In this document: positions 3,917 through 53,392 of the stretch, one piece after another | Numbering within the stretch: the stretch's first letter is position 1 | Layout: each line of letters starts with the position of its first letter | IMG/VR virus record: IMGVR_UViG_3300027708_000013 | DNA length: 64,000 nucleotides | Direction: 5' to 3' (one strand) | Origin: a virus | Lineage: Duplodnaviria; Caudoviricetes | Notes under the pieces: model-generated | What the model saw: the letters and a program-made list of their open reading frames with translations, nothing else | Told to the model about the DNA's origin: nothing | Database searches by the model: none | Made by a program: the position numbers and the translations under genes

Positions 3917-3987
3917 ACTGTATTTACTTTTATTTTTTAAAAGTCAAATTTGATAAATATTTATAATTACACACAATGGAGTTTTAA

Positions 3988-14590: not shown

Positions 14591-14612
14591 AAAAAACCCG
14601 CCGAAGCGGGTT
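14591..14612 (-). terminator. intrinsic terminator of the tmRNA
   Basis: AACCCGC-TTCG-GCGGGTT followed by a T-run. Confidence 0.85.
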
Positions 14613-14921
14613 CTGCTATTTTTGGTAATAAGGTATAACTACCCCAGAGATCATGCCGCTAGGGCGTAAACCTCATCATTAGATGCGTTTGCATTTATCG
14701 ATTTGCTTGATTTACAGTCATCGCCTACTGTGTTGCCGTCTCCATTACCTACCCCTGTCGAAACCATGGCTGGCCCATCAGAAGAAAACTCAGATCCTTT
14801 CACGGTTGGCTCCATTACTGGTTGGCCGCAGTATGCATCCTGCTGAATTTTCTTTTGGTGGACCAGGCGGGAGTCGAACCCGCGTCCAGAAGTCCTTCAC
14901 TTTGAAGGAATTACAACAATT
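14613..14921 (-). ncRNA. ssrA: two-piece (circularly permuted) tmRNA
   Basis: Acceptor piece with T-arm GCGGG-TTCGACT-CCCGC and CTGGTCC-A-CCA ending at 14856 comes first; 5' GGGCCAG starts at 14776 and gives a G3.U70 acceptor stem; tag at 14651-14692 encodes ANASNDEVYALAA*. Confidence 0.92.
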
Positions 14922-14924
14922 CTT

Positions 14925-15071
14925 TTAATTATAACCACGTATGACATTGTTGTCAATGGGTGGATTTGATCTTGCCAATTCTCGTTTAACAGCTTCTTGA
15001 TGTTGCTGTTCTTTTTTCTGCTTGTTCTGTTCAAACTTCTGAAGTATCACAACTTCTTCTTTGTGTGGCAT
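14925..15071 (-). CDS. small hypothetical protein
   Basis: 48 aa, MPHKEEVV...; CTAAATA box 8 nt above the ATG. Confidence 0.45.
   Translation of the reverse strand: MPHKEEVVILQKFEQNKQKKEQQHQEAVKRELARSNPPIDNNVIRGYN
14928..14956 (-). promoter_or_regulatory. consensus sigma70 promoter for the tmRNA
   Basis: TTGACA-17-TATAAT. Confidence 0.9.
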
Positions 15072-18031: not shown

Positions 18032-20170
18032 TTACATTGTAAACAAGGGTCCGGACAGCACACGGGCACTGTCTTCCACACGTAAGTGACGGTTCAAGTT
18101 TTCAATGAACTTGTCTGTCATGTCTCGATTTCTATAGTATCTTGGGAATATGTGTACTTCAACAGCATCATCGCCTTCCAACTGCAACACCGCTGTCATT
18201 CTATTTCTTCCTTCATGCTGACTCACCTGTGCAGGTTCTGAGAAATCGCCCTGACTCCATGCATCGGGAATGTCCACTGTTAAAAATGGCGAAGCAATGG
18301 CTCCACCGTCGGCAATGTATCGCATGATGGTGGATCGATGGAAATCATTCAAGGGAGCTGCTAACTTCAAGAACACACTGGGTCGCATTTTGACACGCAG
18401 GCCAAAATAGTCCACCTCCATGTTGTGTGGTACAACACCGGCGCCACTGTTGTTGTCAATAACAACTTCGTTGACTGTATTGCTTTGTGATATACGAAAT
18501 ATCGAATACAATATGGGATAGTCATCACTGCCTGTTATGCCTTGTTTGATAGGCTGACCACCGTTTTCTCTAGCAACAAAATCGGCAAACACCTGTTGGA
18601 AAACTTTTTCTGGATCTTCTTGGTAATCACTGCTGGTTTGACAGTCATCTGTAAATCCTTCAAAATGCACACGATATTCACCAAATTCTTCAACTCCAAC
18701 GTCATCGGGAGTAAGCTCGCCAATGAACTCTTCAATTTCCTTCCAATCCATGGTGGATTCTGTTATTTCCTCATCTCCATCAACATCTTCTCTACCTGTG
18801 ACATGTATGTCTCTAGCATGGAATGGAATCCAATCTCCCAGTCTGGGATCATGGATGCTGTCGTAGCCTTGTTCGATCAGACTTGCATATTTTTGCAACA
18901 TATCGTTTGGCTCATCTTTGCCCTTGACAATCACATAGGGATTTTTACATGTCAATGTGGCACTGTATACATAACCATCAGCACCACCTTGTGTGGCATA
19001 GTACTCAGCAGTGTCTCGATCTTCGGTCCACCACATGGGTGTGATTAATTCTCTATGTATGCCACCTTGGTTGCCGTGATACACTGTGACCGGGGCAACT
19101 GCTTGTTCGTTCAACTGCATCTGTTTGGCCACCGCAGTAGCCCGTTCCACGTCCTGCATGTCAAAGGGCTTGAGTTCACCACGCCATATCAGTCGTTTGA
19201 TTTCAGCCCAGTCCATGTCAACAAATTGTGTATCTTCCACACCAACCTCATTGGGGCCCACTAGTTGTTGTTCTGAATCAAATCTTCCTCGACAATCGTA
19301 AGCGGCACCATCGGGAGCCACTGCATACACATGGTCAACTCTATAGTCGTCATCGTCTTCGGCATCTTCATCCCAACCTATGTGGGCACGTAGTTGCCAG
19401 TCTGGGTGTATTCTTTTCAATGCCAGAGCCATCACATGGCAGTGACCCCTCATGTAGTCTTGTTTAGATTCCTTCAGGCTCAATGCTGAATCCTGTTGAT
19501 TTAAATAGGCTTGGTTGAGCTGATCTAAATAACCTTGATTGCGTAGTATTTTAAATGCTAGATTCTCAACACCAAATTCTCCTTCACGGTCCAGGCCCGA
19601 TCTACGCATGATGCGAAGTCGATCTCTAATACGTTTTAAATCCGCAGGATCATCTGCTGTGGCAATGGCCACTGTGATTTGTTTGATGAGATCGGTCACT
19701 TTGGCATTCACTGCTGTGTTGTTGATTGTAGGTGGATTGTATTCAGGTTCTTTGATCCAAGCATCGTTGAGTAAACTGTATACTCCGCCCGACACCGGTG
19801 GGGTGGCTGTATCTTCTATGTACAATTCCACTTCATGTCCACGTATGGAGATGTCGTGTTGATTGTTCCAGATATCTTTTTTGGCACGGTATAATGCTTC
19901 TGCAACATCGTCACATTGCAAGTCATTATAGTTGGTGACCACATGCAGGTCAAAGTCCGAATATTGTGTATAGTTGTAGTTGGCCATACTGCCGGTCAAC
20001 ACTATGTCCTGCACTTCAAAGTTGGGTATTTCTAAATAATGTTCAAATATTTCTGCAATCTTCAACAGGTGTTCACGCACTTCGGGTCTTAGATCATTGC
20101 CACGCCAGGCCACTGGGTTCAACTGTTGATGATAGGCTATGTTGCGTTTGACGAAATCTCGAGCTCGCAT
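18032..20170 (-). CDS. multidomain protein: nucleotidyltransferase, Cys-peptidase-like, ART-like, acidic and ParB-like domains
   Basis: LTGS..YSDFDLH (Pol-beta NTase); GHCHVMALAL/HVY/YD; VYHG...AEYYA...NPY; HEGRNR. Confidence 0.6.
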   Translation of the reverse strand: MRARDFVKRNIAYHQQLNPVAWRGNDLRPEVREHLLKIAEIFEHYLEIPNFEVQDIVLTGSMANYNYTQYSDFDLHVVTNYNDLQCDDVAEALYRAKKDIWNNQHDISIRGHEVELYIEDTATPPVSGGVYSLLNDAWIKEPEYNPPTINNTAVNAKVTDLIKQITVAIATADDPADLKRIRDRLRIMRRSGLDREGEFGVENLAFKILRNQGYLDQLNQAYLNQQDSALSLKESKQDYMRGHCHVMALALKRIHPDWQLRAHIGWDEDAEDDDDYRVDHVYAVAPDGAAYDCRGRFDSEQQLVGPNEVGVEDTQFVDMDWAEIKRLIWRGELKPFDMQDVERATAVAKQMQLNEQAVAPVTVYHGNQGGIHRELITPMWWTEDRDTAEYYATQGGADGYVYSATLTCKNPYVIVKGKDEPNDMLQKYASLIEQGYDSIHDPRLGDWIPFHARDIHVTGREDVDGDEEITESTMDWKEIEEFIGELTPDDVGVEEFGEYRVHFEGFTDDCQTSSDYQEDPEKVFQQVFADFVARENGGQPIKQGITGSDDYPILYSIFRISQSNTVNEVVIDNNSGAGVVPHNMEVDYFGLRVKMRPSVFLKLAAPLNDFHRSTIMRYIADGGAIASPFLTVDIPDAWSQGDFSEPAQVSQHEGRNRMTAVLQLEGDDAVEVHIFPRYYRNRDMTDKFIENLNRHLRVEDSARVLSGPLFTM

Positions 20171-20889
20171 TATTGACCTAAATTAAATCGCATGCCAGTG
20201 GCTTGTTCCACTGCAGACACAGGTACTTGATAATTGGGCCAACTGGTTGCTGGAACAATCGGTGCATTTGGCATCAGGTATGCTTGTACCTGGCCGCTGT
20301 TCTTTTCAATGATGATCTTATACAAACGTGTGGGAATTCCTAAGCCATTGCCCACCGTAGGATGATCTTGATCAAATACACCACCGGAGATGATGTAGAA
20401 ATCTGTGCCCGGAGTCATGGCCCATTGGCGTTCAGCTGTTTCCAGCAAGCGCCATCCACCTCTGTTGTTGTTTGCATTTTGAGCCACCATGTTTGATAAG
20501 TTAAAACTCTCTGACATGATGGCATCGTTTTGTGTGTTGTTACCAGCCGGCGCCATGTGTCCTCTATCATGTGTCTTGCCAACCACAGCATAGTCGGCCA
20601 GGCTGGCACTGCATTCCGGAGTCACTGCGGCATCGGGGTGGAAGTTATCTCGACGTTTTGCTGGACCGGTCATTGCGGCTATGGTTAAATGCTCAAACAC
20701 TGCTATGGGGGCCTTGACACTACAACGATGGATCACAGCATAGTTCATGTGGCAAATTTCTTGATCTCCGGGCTGTGCTCGATATTGCGGAGTTCCGTTC
20801 ACAGTGAACTGCGGGCATTGGGCATTGATCTGTGCTTGCGCCAGTCCTGTTGCAACTAGTAAAACAAGTGCTAATAAAAACTTTTTCAT
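20170..20889 (-). CDS. DNA/RNA non-specific endonuclease (NucA-like) with signal peptide
   Basis: DRGHMAP, SNMVAQ, NRGGWRLLE, IPTRLYKI. Confidence 0.9.
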   Translation of the reverse strand: MKKFLLALVLLVATGLAQAQINAQCPQFTVNGTPQYRAQPGDQEICHMNYAVIHRCSVKAPIAVFEHLTIAAMTGPAKRRDNFHPDAAVTPECSASLADYAVVGKTHDRGHMAPAGNNTQNDAIMSESFNLSNMVAQNANNNRGGWRLLETAERQWAMTPGTDFYIISGGVFDQDHPTVGNGLGIPTRLYKIIIEKNSGQVQAYLMPNAPIVPATSWPNYQVPVSAVEQATGMRFNLGQ

Positions 20890-22475: not shown

Positions 22476-22970
22476 TTAACATTTGGAAAAGTCTTGATGT
22501 CGAAACCAACGTTTTTGTCCAAAGCTGGTTTTCAGAGTGAGACCGTAGTGTGCAAACTGCTCACGCCAGGCAAAAAAGCTGGGTCCATGTCCGCCTGACA
22601 GTTGATACATCTCTCTACCATGCGAGTCTAAATGTTCCCATCGATATACGTCCCACTGATATTGGTGCACCATTTCGTGTGCCAGAGTATTCATGAACCA
22701 CTGCTGGCAAAACCATTTGTCACTGATTTCTATCTTGCAATAACTACCCGACGGCTGTTGGTCCAGCCACTCGCAACAGCCCCAGATTTTTTTAACTCTG
22801 TGTTGTATTATCTCGGGTCTAGTCAATTGATTGTCAAAGCAGTATCTGTTGAGTATTCTATAGGCATACAACACGTCTTCATCTGTGGGACGAAAACTTT
22901 TACGCCGTTGGTAGGTGATACCAGGAAGTGGTTGTTCCATTATACGTCGTATGGGATTGGGTCTTGCCAT
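22476..22970 (-). CDS. SprT-like zinc metallopeptidase
   Basis: NTLAHEMVHQ (HExxH) and a downstream HGPSF. Confidence 0.8.
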   Translation of the reverse strand: MARPNPIRRIMEQPLPGITYQRRKSFRPTDEDVLYAYRILNRYCFDNQLTRPEIIQHRVKKIWGCCEWLDQQPSGSYCKIEISDKWFCQQWFMNTLAHEMVHQYQWDVYRWEHLDSHGREMYQLSGGHGPSFFAWREQFAHYGLTLKTSFGQKRWFRHQDFSKC

Positions 22971-32591: not shown

Positions 32592-32599
32592 TATTTATA
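32592..32599 (-). promoter_or_regulatory. T4-type late promoter box
   Basis: Exact TATAAATA. Confidence 0.6.
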
Positions 32600-35238: not shown

Positions 35239-36426
35239 ATGTTTTCCTTAGACAAATTTTACCACATACTACACGATAACCTAATATCACATTTACCACA
35301 CAGTGAATCATTTTGGTGCTATCCTTTTGGCACTTATGATGGTTATGAATCAATTACACAACCAAACCCTCATCAACCAAAAACAAATTTTCAATTTTAT
35401 TTTTATGATCAAGAACCATATTATGACTTTAGTTTAGATATAATTAAAAATTATATTGAAAACTCGCATAGACGAATGAATCGTTTTTGCATACTGGCCA
35501 ATAGTGAACATTCAGAATTAAAAACTCAATTCATCAACTACAATGAATATTACGATTGGTATTATTTTTTTCACGGTTTTGTGGCACTAGATTGGTATCG
35601 AGATTTTCAATATATGAATCCAAATTCATTTAATCAGTTTGATAAAGTATTTATATGTTACAATCACCTGACTAGTAAATTTCGATCTTATCGTTTACAT
35701 CTTGTGTCTAATTTGATACTGCAGGATTTAATACCATATGGTAGAGTAAGTTTATTCCTTGACGATAGCACAGGTACATGGCAACAAGCAATACAAGATC
35801 CTGAAAGTCTTTTAGACTCTCGAGCTAAAATTAAAATATACACGGCGCTTAAAGATCGCACTGAACCGTTGACCATAGACACTGCTACTCCAGTGGGCAA
35901 TTTAAGTGCCACGGTTAATTTTAAAGATTTAACCAGTGCGTTATGGCATATAGTTACTGAAACTGTGTACTTTGACAGTAAACTACATCTAACAGAAAAA
36001 ATATTTAAACCCATTGTTGCTCGGCGTCCGTTCATACTTGTAGCAGCTCCGGGTAATCTTGCCTATTTAAAAAGTTATGGCTTTCGCACATTTGATCGTT
36101 GGATAGACGAAAGTTACGACCAAGAAACTGATCATTACTTAAGAATAGAAAAAATAACAGAGGAAATAGCAAAATTGTGTGCCCGTGAACCCAGTGATTT
36201 GATCATGATGCATGAAGAGATGCAAGAGGTATTGGAATATAATTTCAATCACTTTTATATAACATTTAAAGATCTTATAGTAGACGAACTAGTAGATAAC
36301 TTTGAACAAGTGATTGATCAAATAAATTGTACACCAACTCCAATGGTACATGTTGTTCAACCACACCAACATATTGATTTTCCAGAAAACTATTTGGCAG
36401 AAGTTAAAAAACGTCTTAAGCAATAA
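35239..36426 (+). CDS. TEKxxKPI-family protein, glycosyltransferase-like
   Basis: HIVTET...LTEKIFKPI...GFRTFDRWIDESYD. Confidence 0.55.
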   Translation: MFSLDKFYHILHDNLISHLPHSESFWCYPFGTYDGYESITQPNPHQPKTNFQFYFYDQEPYYDFSLDIIKNYIENSHRRMNRFCILANSEHSELKTQFINYNEYYDWYYFFHGFVALDWYRDFQYMNPNSFNQFDKVFICYNHLTSKFRSYRLHLVSNLILQDLIPYGRVSLFLDDSTGTWQQAIQDPESLLDSRAKIKIYTALKDRTEPLTIDTATPVGNLSATVNFKDLTSALWHIVTETVYFDSKLHLTEKIFKPIVARRPFILVAAPGNLAYLKSYGFRTFDRWIDESYDQETDHYLRIEKITEEIAKLCAREPSDLIMMHEEMQEVLEYNFNHFYITFKDLIVDELVDNFEQVIDQINCTPTPMVHVVQPHQHIDFPENYLAEVKKRLKQ

Positions 36427-49486: not shown

Positions 49487-49494
49487 TATTTATA
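49487..49494 (-). promoter_or_regulatory. T4-type late promoter box
   Basis: Exact TATAAATA. Confidence 0.65.
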
Positions 49495-53352: not shown

Positions 53353-53392
53353 GCTAAAATTCCTTAATTATAGTGTTATTTATACAAAAAAG

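Follow-up and report, generated by a model that had tools for sequence, protein, structure and literature searches.

Why does a single phage protein join five modules of different kinds, and why does every border between them read [LIV]-x-E? The question is raised by a gene, here called P0001, in a stretch of 64,000 nucleotides from the IMG/VR virus record IMGVR_UViG_3300027708_000013 (Duplodnaviria; Caudoviricetes); we refer to the whole of this stretch as the window. An earlier note, made from the letters of the window, had described the product as a nucleotidyltransferase (NTase), a Cys/His/Asp peptidase-like domain, an ADP-ribosyltransferase (ART)-like domain, an acidic domain, and a ParB-like domain, with an [LIV]-x-E motif at every junction, and had proposed a capsid-packaged polyprotein that matures into separate injected effectors. 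The motifs quoted then are all found in P0001, at residues 231-234 (SLKE), 352-355 (QLNE), 364-366 (YHG), 468-471 (EITE), 565-568 (TVNE), and 652-657 (HEGRNR). We favor, with moderate confidence, the hypothesis of a cargo polyprotein, made by a T4-related jumbo phage, that would be packed in the head and cut at its joints.

The Joints as Points of Module Exchange

The tripeptide [LIV]-x-E is common in acidic protein, so that its coincidence with module borders could be meaningless. P0001 holds 13 of these motifs where 10.8 are expected from its composition, and for this reason the motif count alone carries no meaning. What does lie above chance is the position of four of them, which coincide with module borders set independently by homology and by DNA breakpoints (table 1), and the earlier claim of a motif at every domain junction is borne out in this way. 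A search of 5.8 billion proteins returned 229 homologues of P0001, whose lengths and domain content are very different, and a full HMMER scan with residues 233-712 as the query returned 923 representative clusters. Among 120 homologues, BLAST breakpoints fall at residues 234, 351-355, 468, and 559-566, and every module also occurs alone, first, last, or in other orders. At the DNA level, two related contigs (L091 and L092) carry blocks with 94-98% nucleotide identity to the P0001 gene, and the ends of these blocks place recent module exchange within 0-4 codons of all four joints. L091 represents the orthologous locus: the downstream DUF6552 gene is shared, the module set is not, and the order is leader, module 2, an unrelated module, and module 5. 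Three different modules come after ...QLNE in copies of module 2 that are nearly identical, and the place of joint 3 reads ...DGDEQELNE/ in relatives (here and below, a slash marks the joint). The earlier note had suggested checking whether homologues shuffle their domains at such boundaries, and they clearly do.

The same pattern holds across the family. The set of about 260 homologues contains 153 unique internal starts of modules, and 146 of these have [LIVMF]xE within -10 to +4; random windows of 14 residues from the same proteins contain it in 19.6% of cases. Of 65 unique internal copies of module 5, 52 have Glu as the residue just before V-x-I-D-N. After internal modules the motif is found in 164 of 181 cases (91%), after terminal ones in only 7 of 59 (12%). 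Likewise, module 1 ends in ...LSL and a stop codon when it is terminal, including in the cultured cyanophage S-CRM01, whereas internal copies go on as ...LSL-x-E/. We rejected the idea that the motif is a mere part of each fold, given that it is common after internal and rare after terminal modules; it belongs instead to the joint. Chance, to which we give almost no credence, would also have to account for DNA breakpoints within a few codons of all four sites, and the family statistics exclude it.

Exchange at the joints is, on its own, also expected under a different hypothesis, in which P0001 is an uncleaved multidomain "polyvalent" enzyme that acts as one chain in the cytoplasm or the virion, and in which the joints are flexible linkers or preferred points of in-frame recombination. 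The recombination breakpoints lie exactly at the joints, and shuffling alone could maintain the joint motif. However, a DNA repeat shared by the four joints of P0001 was sought and none was found, and the four joint peptides all differ. Because of this, homology-driven recombination is not what explains them. Furthermore, a pure linker would have no need for Glu to be invariant and for L, V, or I to stand two positions ahead of it, and this is what the 143 unique joints show: at P3 there are 61 L, 45 V, 29 I, and 8 M, and N, D, T, or S predominate at P2.

Other recurrent segments were seen in the family. One is a module of about 185 residues that starts with [IL]GNT[RQ]PEYT[RK]P..QRSGKH and always has the same Glu joints on its flanks (P0002 131-319, P0007 10-190, P0099 138-318, P0005 506-690); it stands in for modules 3-4 at the orthologous locus of a relative. 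In some 37 relatives composed of the NTase and module 4 (P0010-P0047), an extra segment at residues ~234-390 lies between both modules and comprises a hydrophobic helix-like stretch, GVKQNTVMAALVAALS, and then a poly-Gly/Asp run ending in ...GGGESMYE/S.

A Leader Resembling the T4 Capsid-Targeting Sequence

A second line of evidence, which the earlier note does not mention, is found at the N-termini of the family. Proteins whose first module is not the NTase share the consensus leader M-[RK]-[AIL]-x-[ED]-[FLI]-[ILFV]-x-E, in short MRAxEFIxE, of which MRAQEFIIE, MRATEFITE, and MRASEFVSE are typical. The 184 proteins of this kind, a subset of the 261 family proteins, have E or D at position 5 in 138 cases and E at position 9 in 79, and 93 distinct leaders end in [LIVMF]xE. 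The Glu of the leader abuts the same module residue as the Glu of a joint does, as is seen on comparing MRATEFITE/VTIDN with QQPVNE/VVIDN. In the T4 genome (NC_000866), IPII and IPIII start with MKTYQEFIAE/A and IPI with MKTFKEF...TITE/A, while gp23 contains LTE/A at E65 and gp24 LRE/S at E10. Because the patterns match in these genes, we take the family leader to be the T4 capsid-targeting sequence (CTS) minus one residue.

In T4, foreign proteins can be loaded into the head by no more than the initial 10 residues of IPIII. Residues 4 and 7 are the main determinants of targeting and residues 8 and 10 those of processing, and Asp at position 10 blocks processing while targeting is kept, so that the two functions are separable within the CTS (PMC9026906). 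If the joints of the family were pure linkers, their motif would not be expected to recur as the end of a leader of this type. It must be said in favor of an uncleaved chain that a cleavable leader is absent from P0001 itself.

Prohead Protease and Capsid Genes in Relatives

A gene for Peptidase_S77, the T4-type prohead protease, with an adjoining gp23-type capsid gene, is present in all four complete or near-complete relatives that carry modules, namely the phage RsoM2USA (344 kb) and three IMG/VR contigs, of which one has terminal repeats and is complete (323 kb) and the others are 90% (360 kb) and 80% complete (266 kb); S77 next to a gp23-type capsid gene was not found in two fragments that are 47% and 31% complete. 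The T4 member of this family, gp21, cuts after Glu (PMC5694885). RsoM2USA, a cultured Ralstonia jumbo phage, was the sole match in a tblastn search with residues 233-712, and megablast of the P0001 gene against the phage collection gave no match. Its ORF385 (L003 2962-3459) is a standalone module 5 with the leader MQTFKQFLSE, located about 700 bp from the major capsid gene (ORF383) and about 4 kb from the Peptidase_S77 gene (ORF379, 103 bits), which makes it a handy experimental entry point.

These findings also bear on the uncleaved chain. Polyvalent proteins of the type of the phage N4 vRNAP are packaged unprocessed (PMC5512222), and P0001 could resemble them. Nevertheless, the joint motif is the known specificity of a protease family that is present in the relatives of this phage, and together with the invariant Glu and the form of the leader this makes us regard an uncleaved P0001 as unlikely.

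The Five Modules

The domain list given in the earlier note holds in outline, its individual calls being right or plausible. Module 1 scores 23.5 bits against Pfam NTP_transf_2 (PF01909; cut-off 21) over residues 47-117 and matches phrog_36119 over residues 10-232 (E 1e-51), and TGS...DFDLH is visible in its sequence. It also occurs as a standalone gene of about 230-240 residues in T4-like cyanophages, Maribacter phages, and Lak phages. Module 3 matches Pfam ART-PolyVal (PF18760) with an E of 8e-4 and 20.6 bits, which is below the cut-off of 31.2; its Atlas feature score is 0.92, ART-PolyVal accounts for 51 of 100 hits, with TM 0.72 to ART-PolyVal clusters, and PARP, RES, and AcrIF11 are also among the matches. 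No known family was found for module 4, which is the usual C-terminal partner of the NTase in 37 two-module relatives.

Module 5 had no Pfam hit. AF2 models cover modules 2 and 5, and that of module 5 has a pLDDT of 95.7. The top Foldseek matches of module 5 are all ParB/Srx proteins (E at least 0.16), and VIA returned Srx with Z 6.0 (root-mean-square deviation [rmsd] 4.5 Å, 96 aligned), Osa with Z 5.0, and ParB, Noc, SbnI, and PadC with Z about 4. The sequence H-[ED]-G-R-x-R, read as HEGRNR in P0001, is invariant (alignment A3). Against PDB, Foldseek matched neither module 2 nor module 5 at E up to 0.001, and nothing meaningful came out of searching PDB sequences with profiles of modules 2, 3, and 5. 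A MAFFT alignment of full-length P0001 together with fragments of single modules was dropped, as the fragments were misplaced.

Module 2 is the Cys/His/Asp domain. C244, H280, and D292 are invariant in 37 homologues (alignment A2), and in the AF2 model (pLDDT 87) C244 is at the N-terminus of a helix and H280 and D292 are on successive strands. The best structural match in VIA is SseI, which is weak (Z 4.9, rmsd 3.7 Å, 90 aligned); the others are protein-glutaminases (Z 4.0-3.7), arylamine N-acetyltransferases, PMT-C3, AvrPphB, and OspI. All are papain/transglutaminase-fold Cys-His enzymes, and all the matches, from Z 4.9 to Z 2.7, are weak. Because every one of them is below Z 5, "papain-like" is a reasonable but unproven call for this modeled domain.

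It could nevertheless be argued that P0001 processes itself, with the papain-like module 2 cutting the joints in cis or in trans. An invariant Cys-His-Asp set on a papain-like scaffold would suit this role, and it has been proposed that polyvalent proteins are processed by peptidases embedded in them (Iyer et al. 2017, PMC5512222). However, most members with the same joints and leader are without module 2: of the five modules, 104 members carry module 5 only, 51 carry module 1 only, and 37 carry modules 1 and 4. A genome-wide protease fits better for this reason. In addition, the neighbors of module 2 are as often deamidases, glutaminases, and acyltransferases as proteases, and cutting after Glu is a hallmark of S77 enzymes. 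We consider self-processing very improbable.

Table 1. Features of P0001 and of the surrounding window (residue numbers refer to P0001; positions refer to the window)
Feature	Position	Strand	Remarks
Putative polyprotein gene P0001	18032..20170	minus	single open reading frame, 712 aa, ATG start
N-terminus MRARDFV	20150..20170	minus	fits the first seven positions of the family leader; Glu absent at position 9
Module 1, residues 1-234, Pol-beta-type NTase	19469..20170	minus	signature G-S..D-x-D (TGSMANYNYTQYSDFDLHV)
Module 2, residues 235-355, papain/transglutaminase-like Cys-His-Asp domain	19106..19468	minus	alignment A2, AF2 model
Module 3, residues 356-471, putative ART-PolyVal-type ADP-ribosyltransferase-fold domain	18758..19105	minus	VYHG..., YYA...; alignment A4
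Module 4, residues 472-568, small acidic domain	18467..18757	minus	isoelectric point (pI) 4.05
Module 5, residues 569-712, putative ParB/sulfiredoxin-fold domain	18035..18466	minus	alignment A3, AF2 model
Joint 1, S-L-K-E/S (E234)	19469..19480	minus	L091 block of 95% identical DNA starts at codon 234.0
Joint 2, Q-L-N-E/Q (E355)	19106..19117	minus	L091 and L092 blocks end at codon 355.7; next block starts at 354.0
Joint 3, E-I-T-E/S (E471)	18758..18769	minus	L092 block of 98.5% identical DNA ends at codon 467.3
Joint 4, T-V-N-E/V (E568)	18467..18478	minus	L091 block of 95.6% identical DNA starts at codon 565.3
Endonuclease_NS (PF01223) gene	20170-20889	minus	clear signal peptide MKKFLLALVLLVATGLAQAQ; stop overlaps the P0001 ATG
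P0265, GP88 domain (PF17338, 113 bits), 381 aa	20899..22044	minus	complete leader MRLYEFVTE/S
SprT-like metallopeptidase-domain protein (PF10263, E 1.6e-8)	22476-22970	minus	just upstream of the P0001 operon
CHASE2 adenylate/guanylate cyclase gene, 669 aa	37243-39252	minus	
tmRNA, betaproteobacterial type	14591-14970	minus	Rfam beta_tmRNA 157.8 bits; permuted tmRNA model 138.5 bits
Exact TATAAATA boxes	3958-3965, 32592-32599, 35648-35655, 49487-49494, 53377-53384	minus (coding)	

Predicted Packaging and Processing

Under the hypothesis that we favor, P0001 would be made alongside the head proteins, and its N-terminal CTS-like segment would draw it into the core of the prohead. There the prohead protease (Peptidase_S77, gp21-like) would cut after E234, E355, E471, and E568 and so release the NTase (27 kDa), its uncleavable leader still attached, and pieces of 14, 13, 11, and 16 kDa. 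The pieces would leave with the DNA and, early in the host, may act as modifying or anti-defense enzymes. With respect to the capsid-packaged polyprotein and injected effectors proposed earlier, the shuffling at the joints, the CTS-like leader of the family, and the S77 protease of relatives, next to gp23-type genes, are observed and speak for the proposal, whereas targeting, packaging, cleavage, injection, and all of the enzymatic activities are inferred.

Several observations weigh against this hypothesis. First, the leader of P0001 departs from the consensus. The protein starts with MRARDFVKR, with Arg where the Glu of position 9 is expected, and internal copies of the NTase start as ...[LI]xE/xxDFV, so that P0001 has only MRAR before the module and the NTase proper begins at about D5. 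Given the lack of the position-9 Glu and the start of the NTase fold at about D5, the leader is predicted to be at best half a CTS. Second, the modules of P0001 have pI values of 4.05-5.68, whereas T4 IPI-III are basic (pI 8.9-9.5), and nine more [LIV]xE sites lie inside the modules. Third, the surroundings do not resemble a head gene cluster: P0001 is flanked by a signal-peptide nuclease gene and by small unknown genes, head genes are not adjacent, and tblastn with four S77 proteins found no S77 gene in the window. The exact T4 late-promoter box, TATAAATA, was not found upstream of the P0001 operon, where there is only CTAAATAC, 24 nt 5' of the operon's first gene. Fourth, a virion study of RsoM2USA identified only about 10 abundant bands, and ORF385 is not among them. 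Finally, in the relatives each capsid protein has an [LI]-x-E some 22-24 residues ahead of a conserved IRR segment; in the alignment this [LI]-x-E is not at the column of the T4 gp23 cleavage site, and because of this mismatch the specificity of the S77 enzymes of this clade stays an assumption made by analogy with T4.

Comparison with Known Systems

In T4, IPI, IPII, IPIII, and Alt carry a CTS and are processed by gp21 (Mullaney and Black 1996, reviewed in PMC9026906, PMC3012670), and gp21 processes both ends of Alt, an ART that is packaged in the head (PMC9026906, PMC5694885). The P0001 family is like these proteins in its short N-terminal leader, which has the same pattern M-K/R-x-x-(x)-E-F-I-x-E, in the cuts expected after L/I/V-x-E, and in placing diverse and fast-changing payloads behind one leader. 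Module 3 of P0001 would, like Alt, be a head-packaged ART, and the relatives of P0001 have the T4-type S77 protease together with the gp23 capsid gene. However, the T4 proteins are single payloads processed only at their termini, which in Alt means both ends, whereas proteins of the P0001 family have up to a dozen unrelated modules per chain, each with its own joint. The family leader is also one residue shorter than that of T4, that of P0001 itself is without the terminal Glu, and the modules are acidic, not basic.

The polyvalent proteins of phages and conjugative elements likewise join unrelated effector-type domains (ART-PolyVal, ParB/Srx, peptidase-like, and NTase) in one polypeptide that is predicted to be delivered with DNA, and their processing, if any, is assigned to an embedded zincin-like metallopeptidase (PMC5512222). 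In this they may differ from P0001, for which Pfam, searched up to E 1, gave no match to a metallopeptidase of this kind. Cleavage is also known from the ejection and inner-body proteins of phiKZ, 201phi2-1, and SPN3US, in which a gp21-related protease cuts head-internal proteins after the Glu of a three-residue motif, sometimes at several sites (PMC5694885, PMC10052503). In those phages the motif is A/S/G-x-E, long propeptides and not shuffled enzyme modules are removed or released, and there is no family of CTS-like leaders of 9-10 residues. The polyproteins of RNA viruses are single products with several enzymes between protease sites; their protease is embedded, and the arrangement serves gene expression. 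They are an analogy only, as P0001 would use a capsid-maturation enzyme, for co-packaging.

Genomic Context

The P0001 protein is on record on five contigs, of which the longest is 340,958 bp, and on two of the five, which are lake-metagenome contigs from JGI, the P0001 gene is present with identical neighbors. The window contains genes for ribonucleotide reductase, DNA ligase, radical-SAM proteins, and a CHASE2 cyclase, and it looks like part of a large phage genome. We rejected the possibility that the open reading frame is an artefact of stop-codon recoding, because the frame has no stop in the standard code and the modules are also found as ordinary genes.

P0265 lies two genes upstream of P0001 on the same strand, and the Endonuclease_NS gene is placed between these two leader-type genes. 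P0265, which shares the operon of P0001, is another candidate for head cargo. At the orthologous locus of L091, a T7-kinase-like gene is found in place of the Endonuclease_NS gene.

The CHASE2 cyclase has its closest cultured relatives, with 36% identity, in the T4-like phages HTVC008M (Pelagibacter) and Melnitz (Methylophilales), and in L092 a CHASE2 cyclase gene directly follows another modular polyprotein. The tag of the tmRNA is ANASNDEVYALAA according to ARAGORN, and a tmRNA of this type hints at a freshwater betaproteobacterium as the host. Four of the five exact TATAAATA boxes of the window are 16-45 nt ahead of a gene start, and their number is not above that expected by chance (3.2).

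Implications

None of the parts of the system that we propose is new: they are the CTS of T4, cutting by gp21 after L/I-x-E, ARTs packaged in heads, polyvalent proteins, and the processing of phiKZ and SPN3US ejection proteins at several A/S/G-x-E sites. In a literature search we found no description of a CTS-like leader combined with a string of shuffled enzyme modules that each end in a protease motif, an architecture that hundreds of protein clusters from T4-related jumbo phages appear to share. We are evenly divided on a broader hypothesis, namely that these phages, in lakes and soils, possess an open "cassette" system in which joint-bearing modules are spliced in frame behind a targeting leader, are co-packaged, and are freed by the head-maturation protease, with the protease site doubling as a universal shuffling joint. 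Modules 2-5 alone detect more than 900 clusters of proteins (50% identity), which such a system would cover.

The hypothesis is directly testable in cultivable relatives such as RsoM2USA or in the T4 CTS packaging assay. If it is true, the leader and the joint motif would provide a sequence-only readout of what uncultured giant phages inject with their DNA, and the injected set would include NTases, ARTs, and ParB-like and papain-like enzymes, likely tools of early host takeover or anti-defense. The capsid protease site would then serve as a modular joint in effector evolution, and the CTS/gp21 loading principle of T4, which so far applies to single small proteins, would extend to multi-enzyme polyproteins.

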